This document shows, piece after piece, positions 1 to 7,123 of a DNA stretch of 28,379 nucleotides. The notes beneath the pieces were generated by a model, which had not been told where the DNA came from, searched no databases, and worked only from the letters and a program-made list of their open reading frames with translations. Origin of the DNA: an uncultured archaeon (lineage in GTDB: Archaea; Asgardarchaeota; Thorarchaeia; Thorarchaeales; Thorarchaeaceae); the NCBI GenBank assembly GCA_964458565.1, contig CAYWJO010000044.1, positions 1-28,379 of the forward strand, read 5' to 3'. Numbering within the stretch: position 1 is the first letter of the stretch; the number at the start of each line of letters is the position of its first letter. The position numbers and the translations under genes were made by a program.

Positions 1-83
1 GGGATGGTGATGTGAGCGATCCCTCTGACCCCAGCCAGGCAACCACTGATGTCGAACCTGTGGATGACTCCTTCGACGGGACG
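1..83 (+). repeat. FN3/DDSFDGT repeat copy R1 (partial)
   Basis: 42-83 matches 1964-2005 at 40/42 nt (accactgatgtcgaRcctgtggatgactccttcgacggRacg). Confidence 0.95.
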
Positions 84-764
84 GATGAGGGTTTTATTGA
101 ATCACTTGATAACAGCACCATTGATTCCACACTAAATCAAGTAGAATCAGAAACAGAATGTTATTGGACGGGTCCATGGCCAGAGCTTAATTATAAAAGA
201 GTAGCTACAGATAATGATGATGTAAGTTTTCATTTTAAGAGAGACTTAGTTGGAACAGTAACAGTCTGCAGTGTTTCCCAGGAACCAACTATTGAACCAA
301 ATGATGACTACCTTGATGAAGTTTTGGTGGAATTTATCATAATAGATTTTATAACTAGTTCTTTCTTTTTCTTTATGAGCCGGGCATTAGATATTTTTGA
401 ATATGGTGGATATGTAAATCTCTATGCCCTTGGAGCATCATTTGTTTTTTGGGTTACAGCAGTTGTATATGCTATGTGTGTTATAACTATGGTTACAGTG
501 ATTAATGAATGGAGTTGGGAGTGGGCTGCAGCAATGTTCGTGGTTTTGGGCATTGAATGCTTAATAGCTGCATTCGGAGGTATCATCACTAGTTTATTCA
601 ACTTGACCTTAGGAACGATACTAGGAAATCTTCTAGCAAATGTTGCAATGAACGAGTTAATCGAGGCAATCACAGGATTGTGGCTGAAGAAACTTTATTT
701 TGTTCTTGCAGCGGGTATGTTTTTTACCTGTGCTTGGCAATGCCTTAATGGAGGAATAACCTAA
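3..764 (+). CDS. Cassette 1: end of FN3 domain + variable hydrophobic C-terminal domain (putative polymorphic toxin tip); 5'-partial
   Basis: The frame is open from base 3 (DGDVSDPSDPSQATTDVEPVDDSFDGT), matching the FN3 ends of the later cassettes, so the GTG at 12 is probably not a true start. Then YWTGPWP and several hydrophobic helices. Function is inferred from architecture. Confidence 0.75.
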   Translation, partial: DGDVSDPSDPSQATTDVEPVDDSFDGTDEGFIESLDNSTIDSTLNQVESETECYWTGPWPELNYKRVATDNDDVSFHFKRDLVGTVTVCSVSQEPTIEPNDDYLDEVLVEFIIIDFITSSFFFFMSRALDIFEYGGYVNLYALGASFVFWVTAVVYAMCVITMVTVINEWSWEWAAAMFVVLGIECLIAAFGGIITSLFNLTLGTILGNLLANVAMNELIEAITGLWLKKLYFVLAAGMFFTCAWQCLNGGIT

Positions 765-765
765 A

Positions 766-1146
766 TTGATAGAATTTTTTATCAATGTTTCAGTTTTTAT
801 TCTAGCTTTGATACCCATATATTTCATAGGGATGGGAGTGGTATTAATCCCTATTATCCTTGCACGATTTAACCTAGAAAAGGTACTTGCCTATTGGCAA
901 AGACGATATTTGGTTTTGCTTATTGATATGATCAGTCTTGTAGTAAGTAGCGTATTTGCATTTTTTTTATGGGCTACTACAATGTATAGAAATCTGATAG
1001 CTTCATTGGGCATAACAATGCCAGGTATCGAAATAATTCTCACAGCTGTGTATATTTTCGGATATATTATCTTCCTAAAAGGACATCAAAGATATAGGTC
1101 GAAAGTTATATCTACTGCTAAGCAGCAGAATTCAGACATTGTGTAA
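766..1146 (+). CDS. Small 3-TM membrane protein, putative cognate immunity/partner of cassette 1
   Basis: 126 aa, three hydrophobic segments. TTG start 1 nt after the upstream stop, with GGAGGA at 750-755 inside the upstream gene (translational coupling). Confidence 0.7.
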   Translation: MIEFFINVSVFILALIPIYFIGMGVVLIPIILARFNLEKVLAYWQRRYLVLLIDMISLVVSSVFAFFLWATTMYRNLIASLGITMPGIEIILTAVYIFGYIIFLKGHQRYRSKVISTAKQQNSDIV

Positions 1147-1278
1147 TAGGGAAAGATGTAGCTTGAATATTATAATAAATTTAGGACAAAATGAGCAGTG
1201 TATCAATATTTGGAGCAGCCGCAATCTTTGCTGGATTAGCACCATTTCATATCTTTAGTTAAATAAGGTGATGAAGCA

Positions 1279-1692
1279 ATGAAGAGAGAATCATCAAACC
1301 TGAATGGATTCATATCAGCGAATAAATACGTGATAGTACTTCTAATGATAGGAATTATATTACTGTTGTATAATCTTGTTGTTGGAGATTTGAGATTCAC
1401 GATCTTTACTCTCGGATATGTGCTATTAGCCTTGTTTATACTCTTAATGTCTCGTGATACTACAAAAGAGACTCATGGAATGGCTTATGTTGCACTACTC
1501 AATGATCAATTAAGAAAGTCTCATGATCCACCGAACCTCCTGAGAGAAACAATTAGGAGATTTCTAAAGAATGAGAAACCACCACGAGAGGTAGTGATAA
1601 AGATATTACGTCAATTCTCGAATTATTCTGATGAGGTAGGAATAGAGGCCCAAAGACTTCTCTCTGAAGTTACGTCTACAAATTATCCGTAA
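1279..1692 (+). CDS. 2-TM protein with C-terminal QFxxxSDEVGxxA motif (paralog of 5420-5842), putative orphan immunity/accessory protein
   Basis: GGTGA RBS at 1267-1271; two N-terminal TM helices; ends ILRQFSNYSDEVGIEAQRLL. Confidence 0.75.
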   Translation: MKRESSNLNGFISANKYVIVLLMIGIILLLYNLVVGDLRFTIFTLGYVLLALFILLMSRDTTKETHGMAYVALLNDQLRKSHDPPNLLRETIRRFLKNEKPPREVVIKILRQFSNYSDEVGIEAQRLLSEVTSTNYP

Positions 1693-1768
1693 GACGGAGA
1701 GGAGTAGGACCTAGGAATAGTTCAGGAATAACCGGTGAATAGTTACTTTCATCACTACCATATGTGGT

Positions 1769-2752
1769 ATGTGGACTGGGAACGATGAGCCAGACATGGA
1801 CCACTACTGCATCTACCGGGATGGTATCAAGGTGGGCGAGGTTGACCATCCCACGACAAGCTTTATCGACAGTGGGCTGGAGCCTGAGACCGAGTATACG
1901 TATACAATGACAGCTGTGGACGACGAGGGTAACGAGGGAGATTTCTCAGACCCTGACTCTACCACCACTGATGTCGAGCCTGTGGATGACTCCTTCGACG
2001 GAACGATGTGGGCATCATCAACAGACGAAGCATTATCATTTATTCAAGATTTGCTTATCAGTTCGATGGACCATCTTGATGCGTATTGGACTGGCTGGTG
2101 GCCAGTATGTCACATTGTTATTTCCTGGAATCCATTCGTTAATGTGGAGCTATCTCTACATCTTACCCTAGATTTACTTCTCAACATCGATATTGGGTTG
2201 GATGGATGTGTGTCTTTAATCGTTCCCTTCCTAACATACATTGGCATTGATGAATCTGAGATGTTCTCGGAAACACGTGCAGCGATCTATAGGCTTAGAG
2301 GATTCCATGATGTTATGAACCCATGGGAAATATCTGATTGGGCTGCCATAGCAGCCATGGTGGCAGGTATGGCTGCAGGTACTCCAATAGGTTCTGTAGC
2401 GTATGGAATAGCACTCGTTGCGTGGTGGGTCAGCCTTGCAGGGGCTATAATCAATGATTACATAGGAATGATCAATGGAGATCTAGAACGATTTGATGTC
2501 GGTTTGCAGTGTGTCCAAAAGGGATTTCAATATGCTATTCAAGGTGGCGCAGGTCTTGCAGCAGGAATTGGGATGAACATGGCATATAATGAAAAGGTGT
2601 TAAATAAAGAAGCTGGGAAGCTTATCGATGACAATCCTGCAAGGGAAATAATAGATAATGAGGTTCCAAAGAACGTAATATCTGGAATCCTTAATCTCCT
2701 TACTGGGTTCGTTGTTGTTATTGTCGGAGTACTTATTTGGAATGGTCTATAA
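1769..2752 (+). CDS. Cassette 2: truncated FN3 + variable Gly/Ala-rich hydrophobic C-terminal domain (putative orphan toxin tip)
   Basis: FN3 consensus W..HYCIYRDG..TSFIDSGLEPETEYTYTMTAVDDEGNEG, then DDSFDGT, YWTGWWP and hydrophobic Gly/Ala-rich helices. No signal peptide or clear RBS; the ATG aligns with an ACG (Thr) codon in copy R3. Confidence 0.75.
   Translation: MWTGNDEPDMDHYCIYRDGIKVGEVDHPTTSFIDSGLEPETEYTYTMTAVDDEGNEGDFSDPDSTTTDVEPVDDSFDGTMWASSTDEALSFIQDLLISSMDHLDAYWTGWWPVCHIVISWNPFVNVELSLHLTLDLLLNIDIGLDGCVSLIVPFLTYIGIDESEMFSETRAAIYRLRGFHDVMNPWEISDWAAIAAMVAGMAAGTPIGSVAYGIALVAWWVSLAGAIINDYIGMINGDLERFDVGLQCVQKGFQYAIQGGAGLAAGIGMNMAYNEKVLNKEAGKLIDDNPAREIIDNEVPKNVISGILNLLTGFVVVIVGVLIWNGL
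1771..2005 (+). repeat. FN3/DDSFDGT repeat copy R2
   Basis: 1771-1836 matches 3956-4021 at 63/66 nt; 3' end matches R1. Confidence 0.95.
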
Positions 2753-2766
2753 GGAGCAATGAAAGT

Positions 2767-3114
2767 ATGTCGATTAGTACCACAGACCCGATAGCTGAGA
2801 TGATTGTTTGGGTGAATCTAATTGTCAATCTAGCTTTCGCCTTAATTCTGTTTCTGCGATTGAAGAAAGTAAGGAGTCTCATGTCTTGGACATTTCAATC
2901 CTATCGAAATGGAATAGCTCTCGTAGTTTTATGGAGTAGTATGTTCTTGTCTTTACTATTAATAGCAATAGGTCAAGGTCAAATTAGCCTTCTCCCAGAA
3001 ATACTGATTCGACTTCCATTTGCATGGTTCCCCTTGGTTCCTGTGATTCTCTTGGTATGGACAAAGAAAATGAAGACACTCGATGAGACCAATGAGGTAG
3101 ATAATATTCATTGA
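2767..3114 (+). CDS. Small 3-TM membrane protein, putative cognate immunity/partner of cassette 2
   Basis: Three hydrophobic segments. AAGGAG at 2751-2756 favours ATG 2767 over the ORF-track start 2737. Confidence 0.7.
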   Translation: MSISTTDPIAEMIVWVNLIVNLAFALILFLRLKKVRSLMSWTFQSYRNGIALVVLWSSMFLSLLLIAIGQGQISLLPEILIRLPFAWFPLVPVILLVWTKKMKTLDETNEVDNIH

Positions 3115-3150
3115 ACTTAGCATATACAATTATACCGAGGCTTGAAACTA

Positions 3151-3318
3151 ATGCAACTAGATATACCCGTATTGCAGAGCATCCTTGCGGCAATTTGGGG
3201 TGTTGCGATTATACTACCTCTTCTATTCCTGATGCTACCAGAAGCAGATAAAAAATGGTCTAGTGTATATGAGACCTGTTTCTCATCGAATCTGCGATCA
3301 ATCATGACTGGATTCTAG
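3151..3318 (+). pseudogene. 55-aa single-TM ORF, probable fragment of a membrane (immunity-like) gene
   Basis: Hand translation MQLDIPVLQSILAAIWGVAIILPLLFLMLPEADKKWSSVYETCFSSNLRSIMTGF; same strand as the array; no clear RBS. Confidence 0.35.
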
Positions 3319-3551
3319 GTATTGAAACCTTCGTTGAAGTTTTGGGAGGTCCAAAAAGCATCTATGGAATATTTACAGGAGGATGGAGTACTTTAATAGG
3401 ATATGGAATTGCAGAATGGAATAATATCCAACAAGCTCTAAGTAGATGTATTTTTGGGACAATATTTGTTGCAGCTTGGGCTGTTGTTGTATTGATGATG
3501 GCATCCCTTTTCTTCTGCTACTATGTAACAGGGGCTCCTATCAATTTTTAA
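3273..3551 (+). pseudogene. Remnant C-terminal part of a variable tip domain lacking its FN3 segment
   Basis: Open frame from 3273 (ORF track starts at TTG 3342). LGIETFVEVLGG resembles LGIECLIAAFGG of cassette 1. Ends in a hydrophobic helix directly before a 3-TM gene. Confidence 0.55.
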
Positions 3552-3571
3552 GTTGAGGTCTGATATGTGAA

Positions 3572-3919
3572 TTGATGGAAATATTCATTCTTGGTATAAG
3601 CTTTGGATTTCTAGTGATTTTTGTCTTAATACGGTGGCTTCTCGTTGAATCATTGGCAGTAATGGAAGACAAAGGTCTAGGAGGAAACAAGTATGTAAAT
3701 CGATGGTCCGAGGTTATAAATAACCAACAAAGTATTCTTGGGATTGGTACTACACTACCATTTGCCATTTTAGTGGTGATAACGCTTCTTCAAGCATGGA
3801 TATTGTTCATCTCGGCTGTGGAAAATGAAGTATTATTTATTCTGATTCTATCCATTTTGAGCTTTATGTGCATCATGGCTATTACTTCAGTTCAATACTC
3901 ATACAAGAAGAAATCATGA
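3572..3919 (+). CDS. Small 3-TM membrane protein, putative immunity partner of the 3273-3551 remnant
   Basis: 115 aa, three hydrophobic segments, basic C-terminus; GAGGT upstream. Confidence 0.7.
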   Translation: MMEIFILGISFGFLVIFVLIRWLLVESLAVMEDKGLGGNKYVNRWSEVINNQQSILGIGTTLPFAILVVITLLQAWILFISAVENEVLFILILSILSFMCIMAITSVQYSYKKKS

Positions 3920-3938
3920 TTGGTTATTTCATCAATAA

Positions 3939-4928
3939 GACAATGTTACTATCACGTGGACTGGGAACGAAGAGCCAGACATGGACCACTACTGTATCTA
4001 CCGGGATGGGATCAAGGTGGGTGACGTGGACGAGTCCCAGACGACCTTCACAGACAGCGGCCTGGAACCAGAGACCACGTACAGCTACCGGGTCTCGGCA
4101 GTGGACGACGAGGGCAACGAGGGACCACAGTCGGACGCTGATGACGCCACCACTGACCCTGAGCCTGTGGAGCTGATGGATTGTGATGGGACTGTTGAAG
4201 GATTAGCAGCTGAAGCAACGAGGAAATATGAAACAACGATAGACCAACGAATGATCGAAGCTATACAAGCAATGTCAACGTACTGGACTGGTTGGTGGCC
4301 ACTCCTTCATTTCATCTGTGATAAGACAGCTGATCAGGATGCAAATATAGCCTTTCACTTAACTATTGATTTAATAGGTTGTGTTTCAGCAGAATCGTTC
4401 AACTTATCCTTCCTAGGTGTGGAAGATCTGTCCATTTCTGAGAGCAATGATGTGATTGATGATATCTCGAGTAATGCTCGCTCTCTTTGGGATGCATCAA
4501 TGGAATTATTGAAGAATATTGTTTCAACTGCTTGGTTAATAGCTGAGCTACTTGCGCTCTTTCAGATACCTTCAACTGAATCTATCTTTTGGTTCACACT
4601 TGGAATTGCGATTGGAGCATATTTCTGTTATCTTGCGCTGCTTATTCTACATACTCGTGCATTTAATTTAGATCCGTGGACGAAAGCAATCACATTTTTC
4701 TTTGCAGCTCTACTTCTTGGGGGTGGAGTAGTAAAGAACTTATGGAAAGCAACAAGCCTTGGTCAAGGTAGTATATCTAGATTCTTCCAGAGTAAATATA
4801 TTTCTCATCCAAAATTAAAGAAGGTAGGATTTCAAGGACGTACTCATGTAGGATTGATGCTTGGACAACTAACTTGCTTAATTACCACAATAATAATAGC
4901 TACATTATTCTATCTAGGTGTTCTTTAA
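3939..4928 (+). CDS. Cassette 3: truncated FN3 + variable 4-helix hydrophobic C-terminal domain (putative orphan toxin tip)
   Basis: FN3 homology starts before the first ATG (3981): after TAA 3936-3938 the frame reads DNVTITWTGNEEPDMDHYCIYRDG. Then MDCDGT, YWTGWWP and four hydrophobic helices. Confidence 0.75.
   Translation, partial: DNVTITWTGNEEPDMDHYCIYRDGIKVGDVDESQTTFTDSGLEPETTYSYRVSAVDDEGNEGPQSDADDATTDPEPVELMDCDGTVEGLAAEATRKYETTIDQRMIEAIQAMSTYWTGWWPLLHFICDKTADQDANIAFHLTIDLIGCVSAESFNLSFLGVEDLSISESNDVIDDISSNARSLWDASMELLKNIVSTAWLIAELLALFQIPSTESIFWFTLGIAIGAYFCYLALLILHTRAFNLDPWTKAITFFFAALLLGGGVVKNLWKATSLGQGSISRFFQSKYISHPKLKKVGFQGRTHVGLMLGQLTCLITTIIIATLFYLGVL
3942..4202 (+). repeat. FN3 repeat copy R3
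   Basis: 5' part matches R2 (63/66). 4110-4153 is identical to 6100-6143 (44 nt). 4185-4202 matches 6175-6192 at 17/18. Confidence 0.95.
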
Positions 4929-4944
4929 GTGTAATGAAAAATCA

Positions 4945-5361
4945 ATGGAGATGAATGACATGACTGACGATGAACGTATTTTGTTAATTTGGATGTTGTT
5001 TTTTGATGCTATATACGCGATTGCAGTATATTTCTACTTTGTAAAAGGGAACTTTCTCCGAGTTCGTCTATCACGAGGTGCCTTAATTGAAAATTCTACA
5101 TTGGGTTATTCATTGGCAAAGCTTAGTATAGATTCAAAAATGCATTACAGAGTCTTGAGTATGTTCGGATTCTCTTCACCAGTTCTACTCTTCTGGGTTT
5201 TGAGTTATATGTTCATTCCTATTATGTTTCTTGATATATTTAGAGAAAGCCTTTTGTTTTTAGTAGGCTCTATTCTTCTTGGATTTTGTTTTACACTAGA
5301 AATTAGTGATAAAGAGGATGTTTTGGTAGAAGATTATGATGATCCCATAAATAATATTTGA
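4945..5361 (+). CDS. Small 3-TM membrane protein, putative cognate immunity/partner of cassette 3
   Basis: Three hydrophobic segments, acidic tail. Start is ambiguous among ATG 4945/4951/4960 (GGAG at 4947-4950 favours 4960). Confidence 0.7.
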   Translation: MEMNDMTDDERILLIWMLFFDAIYAIAVYFYFVKGNFLRVRLSRGALIENSTLGYSLAKLSIDSKMHYRVLSMFGFSSPVLLFWVLSYMFIPIMFLDIFRESLLFLVGSILLGFCFTLEISDKEDVLVEDYDDPINNI

Positions 5362-5419
5362 ATAGGACTGGCATTTGAATTGAATAGCATTGACAATAGC
5401 AATAAAAGCGGTAGTTAAA

Positions 5420-5842
5420 ATGACGGAGAAAAAAGAATCCAATGAAATGAATGAAACATTGAATATGGGGATAGCATTAAAGGTGAAAGTGATATGGCGT
5501 TGGACATTGCGAATCTGGTTGATTCTTTTTATTCCAGTGGGCATATTGATGACAGTAGTTGGATTCGACAATTTCACCATCTCCGCATACATTATGGTCT
5601 CCTTTTTCTTGTTCATTACATATCCATCAATAAAGGAAGAATCTGACATATCAGGTAGGGAAGCAAGGATGTTAGAGATCTTTGTGTCAAGGTCTGAAAA
5701 TCCCTCCGCTTCATTCGAAGAGTATATTATAAAATTACGGAATTCAGGCCGAATTGGAAACAATGAACTTCAGGAGTTACTGATACAATTCACCTCCCGA
5801 AGTGATGAAGTAGGAGCAAAAGCAAGAGAAATGATTGGATGA
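5420..5842 (+). CDS. 2-TM protein with C-terminal QFxxxSDEVGxxA motif (paralog of 1279-1692)
   Basis: Two TM helices, ends LLIQFTSRSDEVGAKAREMIG. ATG 5420 preferred over TTG 5390. Confidence 0.75.
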   Translation: MTEKKESNEMNETLNMGIALKVKVIWRWTLRIWLILFIPVGILMTVVGFDNFTISAYIMVSFFLFITYPSIKEESDISGREARMLEIFVSRSENPSASFEEYIIKLRNSGRIGNNELQELLIQFTSRSDEVGAKAREMIG

Positions 5843-5925
5843 TGTAGAAGCTGCATTATTACAGCCTAGATAGGATTATTCAATTTGGAGAGAAGGTAGC
5901 TTCGTTTTGGTGGTTAGAACACTTC

Positions 5926-6213
5926 CACGAGGAGGTCGAGCTGAGCTGGGACGCCAGCGGTGCTGGTGACCTCCACCACTACAACGTGTTTAGGGACGGG
6001 ATGAAGGTGGCGGAGGTGGATGAGCCCACCACAACCTTCACAGACACCGGGCTGGAGCCCGAGACCACCTACTCCTACACGGTGTCAGCGGTGGACGAGG
6101 AGGGCAACGAGGGACCACAGTCGGACGCTGATGACGCCACCACGGAACAGGAGCCTCCCCCTGATGACTCCTTCGATGGGACTGCTGAAGGAATAGTCGA
6201 AACTAGTATCTAA
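5926..6213 (+). pseudogene. Terminal FN3 stub (repeat copy R4) without a C-terminal tip
   Basis: Frame reads HEEVELSWDASGAGDLHHYNVFRDGMKV...GLEPETTYSYTVSAVDEEGNEG...DDSFDGTAEGIVETSI*. FN3 homology starts upstream of the called GTG 5986, and the frame stops 9 codons after DGT. Confidence 0.85.
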
Positions 6214-6370: not shown

Positions 6371-7123
6371 ATGTCAGGTAAGATAATCAGTATCCATTCA
6401 TTCCGAGGAGGTACTGGAAAATCAAACATATCCGCTAATCTTGCAGCTCTAGCTGCACTAGATGGAAAACGAGTCGCGGTCATGGATACAGATATCGCTT
6501 CTCCCGGAATTCACGTTATTTTTGGGATGGGTCGTGAGAAAATGAAGTACACTCTCAATGATTATCTAAGAGGAGAGTGTGACATCACAGATACGTGTGT
6601 GGATATGACCGAACGCCTTGGAATAAAACAAGGGAAATTGTTCCTTATCCCTTCATCAATGAGTGCAACTGACATTACAAGAATACTTCGAGAAGGGTAC
6701 GAAGTAAGCGACTTGAGAAATGGGTTTAGCGAAGTAATCGAAGCAAGAGACCTCGACTATCTGATCATCGACACTCATCCAGGACTTGATAGAGAGACAC
6801 TACTCTCCATGGCAACAGCAGATTTTCTCTTCGTCGTAGCAAGAATTGATGAACAGGATCTTCTTGGAACTGCAGCTACATTGAGTGTTGCAAAGAAATT
6901 ACAAGTTCCAGATATTCGCATTATAATCAACAAAAAACCAAGTATCTATGAAGACGATGCAATCAGAGCAGAAGTTGAAAGGAAATTCAAAACAAAAGTT
7001 GCCACTATTATTCCTCTTGTGCCCATCCTGATTGAGGTCGGCAGCCGATATGTTGTGATTCTCAAACATCCTGACAATGAGTTCACAAAAAAAATCCAAG
7101 ATATTTACAATGTCATAAAATGA
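6371..7123 (+). CDS. MinD/ParA-family ATPase
   Basis: Deviant Walker A SFRGGTGKS, VMDTD, LIIDTHPG; AAGGAG RBS. Confidence 0.92.
   Translation: MSGKIISIHSFRGGTGKSNISANLAALAALDGKRVAVMDTDIASPGIHVIFGMGREKMKYTLNDYLRGECDITDTCVDMTERLGIKQGKLFLIPSSMSATDITRILREGYEVSDLRNGFSEVIEARDLDYLIIDTHPGLDRETLLSMATADFLFVVARIDEQDLLGTAATLSVAKKLQVPDIRIIINKKPSIYEDDAIRAEVERKFKTKVATIIPLVPILIEVGSRYVVILKHPDNEFTKKIQDIYNVIK

Follow-up and report, generated by a model that had tools for sequence, protein, structure and literature searches.

Mosaic FN3 handles in a Thorarchaeaceae cassette array suggest that recombination exchanges the tips of a large surface protein

The window analyzed here is a 28,379-nt stretch of an uncultured Thorarchaeaceae archaeon (Asgardarchaeota), contig CAYWJO010000044.1 of assembly GCA_964458565.1, positions 1 to 28,379 of the forward strand, hereafter C44. 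The source genome is metagenome-assembled (3.73 Mb, 93 contigs, 41% GC, 5% contamination). The first 6213 nt of the window carry a cassette array built around four same-strand part-copies of a fibronectin type III (FN3) domain, called handles R1 to R4, and the contig start falls inside R1. R1, R2 and R3 each run through a D-G-T junction (DGT) into an unrelated C-terminal tip of about 230-250 aa, which contains a YWTG(W/P)WP motif and about 3-4 predicted hydrophobic helices, and every tip is followed by one or two small genes for proteins with 2-4 transmembrane (TM) segments (Table 1). The cassettes have no start codon. No Pfam family matched any tip, so that no toxin domain was recognisable, or the partner genes of cassette 1, and none of the partners showed a known immunity family. 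The repeats had been described as FN3 in a preliminary description of this DNA, which holds for a partial domain: R1-R4 match positions 28-80 of the 84-position Pfam fn3 model, i.e. the 3' two-thirds of the domain, and the orphan handles score 19-24 bits, under the curated cut-off, while the full copy in the main gene on contig C61 is clear at 55 bits.

A tblastn search of the genome placed the only full-length gene for a protein of this kind on C61 and, besides it, detected a 24%-identical paralogue on contig C24. The N-terminus of the C61 product (1275-1279 aa) contains a hydrophobic segment, read from the sequence, which is a candidate export signal. Pfam gave only fn3 and weak matches on the main gene, and an ESM Atlas search with the main-gene body returned no usable match. 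The body is about 50% conserved, and of 24 genomes from the same taxonomic family 18 carry the main-gene family; the FN3 pair is missing from most of those relatives, where the end of the last lectin-like domain is the handle. One homologue, P0126 (MBN2228201.1), is labelled Candidatus Thorarchaeota archaeon, and a relative of tip 1 (31% identical) forms the end of this full-length protein. Downstream of the C61 main gene lie a partner gene and one further orphan cassette, O61, and the genome thus has six handles, namely M2 (in the main gene), O61 and R1-R4. The 5' ends of the orphan handles (R1-R4, O61) are staggered, and their upstream flanks are unrelated.

Table 1. Features of the cassette array in the window and of the related loci used for comparison.
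Feature	Location	Strand	Remarks
R1 handle, 3' end only	1..83	+	contig begins within
Tip 1, variable C-terminal module	84..764	+	YWTGPWP motif; ~3-4 hydrophobic helices
Cassette 1 partner genes	766..1692	+	766-1146 (126 aa, ~3-4 TM); 1279-1692 (137 aa, 2 TM + SDEVG tail)
R2 handle	1772..2005	+	FN3 from strand-B Trp to DGT junction
Tip 2	2006..2752	+	YWTGWWP motif; hydrophobic helices; full-length distant kin of L030-B tip
Cassette 2 partners	2737..3919	+	2a 2737-3114; short TM remnants 3142-3318, 3342-3551; 3-TM gene 3572-3919
R3 handle	3957..4193	+	
Tip 3	4194..4928	+	
Cassette 3 partners	4918..5842	+	3a 4918-5361; 3b 5390-5842 (2 TM + SDEVG-type tail)
R4 handle	5929..6183	+	third 5' lineage (WDAS..HYNVFRDGMKVAE)
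R4 tip stub	6184..6213	+	nine codons (AEGIVETSI), then stop; dead end of array
Sole full-length main gene of the assembly	C61 12454-16290	-	1279 aa; two FN3 domains (FN3#1, FN3#2), then tip
L030, independent FN3-handle array	Ga0315553_10009185 (6868 nt)		main-gene end Lm and orphans LA, LB, LC with partner genes
G007 cassette locus L047	G007:C39:1-13000		lectin-type, mosaic handles
G007 cassette locus L046	G007:C110:74500-86823		lectin-type, mosaic handles

The handles are patchworks of one another. The pairwise matches on which the preliminary description based this statement were reproduced exactly: R2 resembles R3 in its 5' part (1771-1836 against 3956-4021, 63/66) and R1 in its 3' part (1964-2005 against 42-83, 40/42), while R3 and R4 are identical over a 3' stretch (4110-4153 against 6100-6143, 44/44). 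The different 5' peptides of R3 and R4 (WTGNEEPDMDHYCIY versus WDASGAGDLHHYNVF) and the switch of R4 to the GATGACTCCTTCGA type and then to GATGGGACTGYTGAAGGA are likewise visible in the alignments. For a wider comparison, the six handles of this genome were combined with the four of L030 (Lm, LA, LB and LC), an array from another organism, in a codon alignment of ten. L030 was the only relevant locus among 17 found by scanning metagenome contigs with a conserved handle-core pattern. A scan of genome contigs with the exact handle-core pattern matched only an unrelated Curtobacterium sequence, and a profile search with the ten-handle alignment was swamped by generic multi-FN3 proteins and yielded nothing usable.

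In this alignment the copies regroup from block to block. In block S1 (columns 18-96), M2, R2 and R3 are 90-94% identical and Lm and LB 85%, with R4 at about 60% to all; in S2 (columns 96-171), M2, R3, O61 and LA form a group of 87-97%, from which R2 stands apart at 56-73% to every copy. S3 (columns 171-222) unites R3, R4 and O61 (80-92%), M2 and LA (94%), and R1, LB and LC (76-80%), and S4 (columns 222-258) unites R4 and O61 (100%), R1, R2 and LA (90-93%), and Lm and LC (93%), with R3 unique. Read along single copies, R2 is 94% identical to M2 in its 5' block, an outlier in the middle and 93% identical to R1 at the 3' end. R3 goes with M2 and R2 (90-91%), then with M2, O61 and LA (87-95%), then with R4, and ends in a block of its own (ELMDCDGT), whereas R4, after the block identical to R3, matches O61 (36 nt exact). 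Three pieces make up the visible part of R1, which agrees exactly with LC over 30 nt and with LB over 28 nt and then has an R2-type end. No exact word common to handles is longer than 45 nt. The tips are only 20-31% identical or unrelated, while the adjoining handle blocks reach 90-100% (80-100% up to DGT). Homology stops at DGT, and with near-identical blocks before unlike tips the handle blocks thus move independently of the tips.

Formal tests confirmed that no single tree fits the repeats, as had been proposed. The informative sites of this genome's four full copies (R2, R3, R4 and M2) are divided, with 10 in support of R2R4|R3M2, 12 of R2M2|R3R4 and one of R2R3|R4M2, and the two conflicting site classes fall in separate, alternating runs. 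A test of the pairwise homoplasy index (PHI) type, i.e. refined incompatibility with site permutation (5000 permutations for the pooled sets, hence a limit of p <= 2e-4), gave p = 0.006-0.007 at window 3 for these four copies, p = 1e-4 to 2e-4 at all three windows for the five copies covering the 3' part, and p <= 2e-4 for pooled sets of 6-10 copies. This test is independent of the chosen block limits. A GENECONV-like longest-run test singled out R3-R4 (pairwise p = 1e-4 to 2e-4; 0.011-0.031 when corrected over all pairs) and R2-M2 (global p = 0.011). In approximately unbiased (AU) tests the maximum-likelihood trees of three blocks were mutually rejected (p-AU 0.0005-0.049), and the concatenated tree was rejected by two of the three blocks. 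Moreover, codons for the same amino acid differ in 2/23 cases between R2 and M2 in S1 versus 15/30 in S2 and S3 (Fisher p = 0.0024), in 9/20 between R3 and R4 in S2 versus 1/15 in S3 (p = 0.022), and in 0/12 versus 4/10 between O61 and LA (p = 0.029). Because synonymous divergence jumps within pairs, the blocks are not explicable by protein constraint. The conflicting pattern exceeds chance, and PHI-type, longest-run, AU and synonymous-site results together support the earlier suggestion of repeated recombination inside the handle.

The mosaic extends across organisms. The orphan LA of L030 is 92-97% identical to M2 and O61 in S2 and 94% to M2 in S3, but only 59-64% identical to its own locus mates in S2, and exact blocks of 28-40 nt are common to the different organisms. 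As a control, the FN3#1 and linker just upstream in the C61 and L030 main genes were compared by blastn, which detected no similarity. Since blocks of 92-97% identity are shared with an organism whose FN3#1 has no detectable DNA similarity, part of the mosaic is, judging from these comparisons, due to exchange between lineages, beyond conversion within the array.

The handle had also been proposed as the exchange site, with the suggestion to look for one 5' block joined to a different tip. Two proteins show such joints. P0001 (ENA, 470 aa) agrees with the C61 main gene product at 179/183 positions in a stretch that begins where the lectin-like domain ends, spans FN3#1 and reaches YRVSAVD in FN3#2. 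Beyond this point its 3' handle differs, and its tip shares only 59/227 positions with the resident tip; the P0001 tip matches the L030 main tip at 58/58 positions in its first part and at 97/186 in the remainder. P0002 (JGI, 337 aa) keeps the ten residues upstream of the R2 handle (VTFITTICGM) and thus represents the same slot, and its handle has an R3-like middle and an LC-like 3' end; its tip is identical at 205/248 positions to that of LC and at 49/221 to that of R2. These swapped alleles support the handle as the exchange site at the protein level, although the breakpoints are not placed at the nucleotide level. Compared with L030:5604-6341, P0001 also shows a second breakpoint inside the tip, after the YWTGWWP sub-domain (to ..PMEGK), and recombination may also occur behind this conserved sub-domain.

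Independent assemblies contain further copies. P0124 (JGI, three contigs) matches the R1 cassette in full at 100% identity, including the 3' block of R1, and adds 100 residues upstream, which shows R1 to be an orphan with unrelated sequence upstream. The possibility that a second full-length main gene precedes R1 was therefore rejected, in line with the single full-length gene found by tblastn. With this extension the R1 handle is the longest and comprises the inter-FN3 linker and a complete FN3 of the L030 (Lm/LB) type, with 62/70 aa identical to LB. P0140 (JGI) reproduces the R3 cassette from VDESQ onward at 100% identity, including the R4-like 3' block but not the R2-like 5' block; the longest contig listed for either protein is 14,572 nt. 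In P0142 (NCBI), an R4-lineage handle (66/82 aa) precedes an intact tip of the O61 family (129/236).

Taken together, R1-R4 are very probably recombination-scrambled handles of spare tip cassettes, and recombination in the handle very probably swaps the tips. R1-R4 would be the homology arms of start-less spare cassettes for the large surface protein whose full-length gene lies on C61, each cassette consisting of the 3' part of the last FN3 ending in DGT, a variable multi-helix membrane tip and one or two small membrane-protein genes. General homologous recombination would act on these handles by two routes, short-tract gene conversion between copies of one genome and crossover with incoming cassettes of other lineages. 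The former is suggested because R1-R2 and R3-R4 share 3' blocks despite their different 5' lineages and because S1 groups by genome, and the latter because blocks are shared across organisms; the relative weight of the two we infer from these patterns. Tracts would stop at DGT, where homology ends, and crossovers at varied points in the handle of about 250 bp would produce patchwork copies. The same events could join a gene body or cassette slot that is itself unchanged to a new tip with its partner. In an array, where a handle stands on both sides of each cassette, replacement could proceed by double crossover, which P0002 fits.

Neither the cassette genes nor the ten neighbours examined matched any Pfam family of recombinases, transposases or reverse transcriptases; the neighbours include genes for an aldehyde:ferredoxin oxidoreductase, hydrolases, geranylgeranyl-reductase-like and acyl-CoA-synthetase-like proteins, a Ras-like GTPase and an FtsX-type permease. 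Because no dedicated recombinase occurs among these genes, ordinary host homologous recombination is the probable agent. Diversity-generating retroelements, integrons and shufflons were ruled out, since reverse transcriptase, integrase, invertase and recombinase are absent there and the differences between copies are not limited to one base type.

Several points weigh against this interpretation. The PHI signal of the four copies of this genome is short-range only and weakens to 0.03, 0.10 and 0.73 at windows 5, 6 and 8. Nor was the test significant when restricted to the four L030 copies (11 informative sites; p = 0.24-0.66) or applied to the seven long handles of G007, a relative in another genus (p about 0.2); both sets have few informative sites, which explains the lack of significance. 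The copies are few, and the block limits of the AU tests were set after inspecting the data, which makes the AU p-values optimistic. In addition, P0001 and P0002 are known as proteins, each encoded on one short contig (5087 and 2042 nt, respectively), so that a chimeric contig is possible for either, and R2, R4 and the 5' block of R3 have no copy in an independent assembly.

Assembly error is the explanation that the preliminary description had set against its own reading. The mosaics would then be chimeras, made where short shared words let an assembler jump from one similar repeat or co-occurring strain to another, and a metagenome-assembled genome with some contamination, a contig that breaks inside R1, exact words of up to 45 nt common to handles and the short single contigs of P0001 and P0002 would all suit it. 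However, a path switch swaps everything downstream and leaves no short internal blocks that are flanked by unique sequence at either end, the exact words in common are all far shorter than a read, and the P0001 tip copies none of the compared sequences. Blocks of the same types are also present in L030, a separate contig from another organism, and in the NCBI record P0142. The JGI/IMG proteins identical to the R1 cassette and to R3 from VDESQ argue against chimeras for these copies, and a small residual doubt remains, as R2, R4 and the 5' block of R3 are uncovered; overall, we regard assembly chimeras as very improbable. Even less probable is that there was no recombination in the handle and that duplication, uneven constraint and convergence along the FN3 imitate blocks. 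The FN3 does have conserved and variable strands, some shared motifs (GNEG, DGT) are probably under protein-level constraint, and the sample is small, but synonymous differences jump between blocks of the same pair and the conflicting partitions are spatially clustered. Furthermore, partial orphan domains cannot fold as FN3 and yet have blocks of 90-100% nucleotide identity beside tips of 20-31%, and the exact blocks of 28-40 nt cross organisms whose neighbouring domain has no DNA similarity.

It is also conceivable that the patchwork was made wholly elsewhere and that the cassettes arrived by horizontal transfer already mosaic, with no exchange among the copies of this genome. What makes this reading attractive is that R1 belongs to the L030 type, that LA, an L030 orphan, belongs to the M2/O61 type and that the R4 lineage recurs in P0142. 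It does not account for neighbours that share 3' blocks despite different 5' lineages (R1-R2 and R3-R4), for a 5' block that groups by genome ({M2,R2,R3} against {Lm,LB}), as local homogenisation predicts, or for the complete identity of R4 and O61, on different contigs of the same genome, in the last block. Moreover, P0001 and P0002 depart from this genome only downstream of points in the handle. An origin wholly elsewhere is thus unlikely, though less so than the two preceding explanations, and recombination within the handles of this genome and with those of other lineages remains the preferred reading.

Mosaic handles are not limited to the FN3 type. In G007, at least 11 orphan cassettes lie on two contigs away from the main gene (Table 1), and its 12 lectin-type handles gave PHI p = 0.0004-0.0016 in an 85-nt core. 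The DGT junction is common to FN3-type and lectin-type handles, and it appears from this distribution to be older than the insertion of the FN3 pair. A longer junction, (E)PV(D)xx(Y/F)DGT, is seen in both handle types (P0126, P0128; window 57-83), and tips of the R1 family occur behind both. Within the array of the window, the codons of the R4 stub resemble the start of tip 3 (DGTVEGL..), and a ParA/MinD-like gene (6371-7123) directly follows the R4 remnant. The R2 and R3 handles start at identical 5' ends. A similar stretch of about 22 nt with the consensus TGAWTRGTTAYTTTCATCAMTA lies 14 and 19 nt before them, respectively, at 1736-1757 and 3917-3937; it was the only result of a search for a motif at the orphan 5' junctions and is weak (shuffle p about 0.05). 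R2 and R3 may derive from one truncated slot.

The handles also differ from their surroundings in GC content at the third position of codons (GC3). GC3 is 0.59-0.79 in the four handles of the window and 0.28-0.39 in the tips and partners, compared with a mean of 0.345 (5th-95th percentile 0.29-0.42) in long open reading frames genome-wide and 0.32-0.46 in the non-handle FN3#1 of the main gene. In the L030 main gene, GC3 rises from 0.33-0.53 in FN3#1 and linker to 0.70-0.87 in the handle and falls to 0.13-0.37 in the tip; in the G007 main gene it is 0.80-0.93 in the last lectin domain and mostly 0.33-0.40 in the tip, apart from two windows of 30 codons at 0.57-0.67. GC3 is 0.25-0.42 where the orphan LA has decayed in its 5' part, and the G007 orphan handles are GC-rich at 0.49-0.61 (0.57-0.61 in all but one). 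Thus, in three organisms and both handle types (also at L030:6342-6590 and L048:3535-4200), GC3 is high (0.59-0.93) within the handle and about 0.3 a few codons past DGT. This composition fits GC-biased gene conversion (gBGC) or selection on the arm, two causes that these data do not separate. A bolder proposal, which we consider possible but doubtful, is that the handles are hot spots of recombination in an Asgard cassette exchanger that lacks its own recombinase and that their high GC3, at 0.59-0.88 within the recombining arm and back at 0.25-0.42 in a decayed handle, is a footprint of gBGC.

The layout resembles that of bacterial polymorphic toxin systems with their orphan cdiA-CT/cdiI and rhs-CT/rhsI modules (Zhang et al. 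2012, PMC3482391); displacement arrays in the V. cholerae type VI secretion system provide a further comparison (PMC5361080). As in polymorphic toxin systems, a large surface protein has a conserved body and a sharp drop of identity at a short junction motif (here DGT), very diverse C-terminal modules are each followed by small cognate-looking genes, start-less cassettes downstream keep a conserved piece as recombination arm, and related strains have alleles with swapped ends. In contrast, the host here is an Asgard archaeon and the arm is a partial FN3 (the end of a lectin-like domain in relatives). Moreover, the tips are predicted multi-helix membrane modules in which Pfam shows no toxin domain, the partners are small multi-TM proteins of no immunity family known to Pfam, and no known delivery system was identified here. 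By analogy, we favour a putative role of the tips as a toxin/immunity or self-recognition membrane module.

In the literature consulted, archaeal precedents are limited to the VARTIG module of Thermococcales (Makarova et al. 2021, PMC8416519), for which no counterparts were reported outside Thermococcales, and a few predicted toxin loci with bacterial-type domains (PMC6393860). VARTIG, the nearest archaeal description, is similar in that behind the gene for a large Ig-fold surface protein come shorter genes that align with its C-terminal region, in that its variability is ascribed to recombination, also between species, and in that its layout likewise resembles polymorphic toxin systems. There, however, the distal Ig domain is hypervariable and no within-locus recombination was detected (PMC8416519). 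In the present array the Ig-like FN3 is instead the conserved, homogenised arm, and the variable membrane module lies behind it.

Antigenic variation via silent partial copies, as in Neisseria pilE/pilS, Borrelia vlsE and Treponema tprK, is comparable in having one expressed gene and promoter-less partial copies, with short-tract, apparently non-reciprocal exchange that generates mosaics. There, the expressed gene is mosaic in its exposed variable region, whereas here the mosaic lies in the constant arm. Unlike there, whole tips move here with their partner genes, and exchange between lineages is evident.

In bacteria, the swapping of toxin or recognition modules at a common arm is well established. 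The present analysis adds formal mosaic tests, cross-organism block sharing with its control, swapped alleles and a check against independent assemblies, which provide statistical evidence that the arm of an Asgard system recombines and protein-level comparative evidence of tip exchange at the handle, inside a species-level population as well as between lineages. A cassette reservoir thereby becomes a testable idea, and DNA exchange is shown between uncultured Thorarchaeota lineages. The one archaeal data set in a 2015 survey of gBGC was uninformative (PMC4450053). The handles offer a sharply bounded natural test case of whether recombination drives GC content in archaea and, if their high GC3 were indeed a footprint of gBGC, they would be a clear local signature of it in an archaeon of the lineage closest to eukaryotes.

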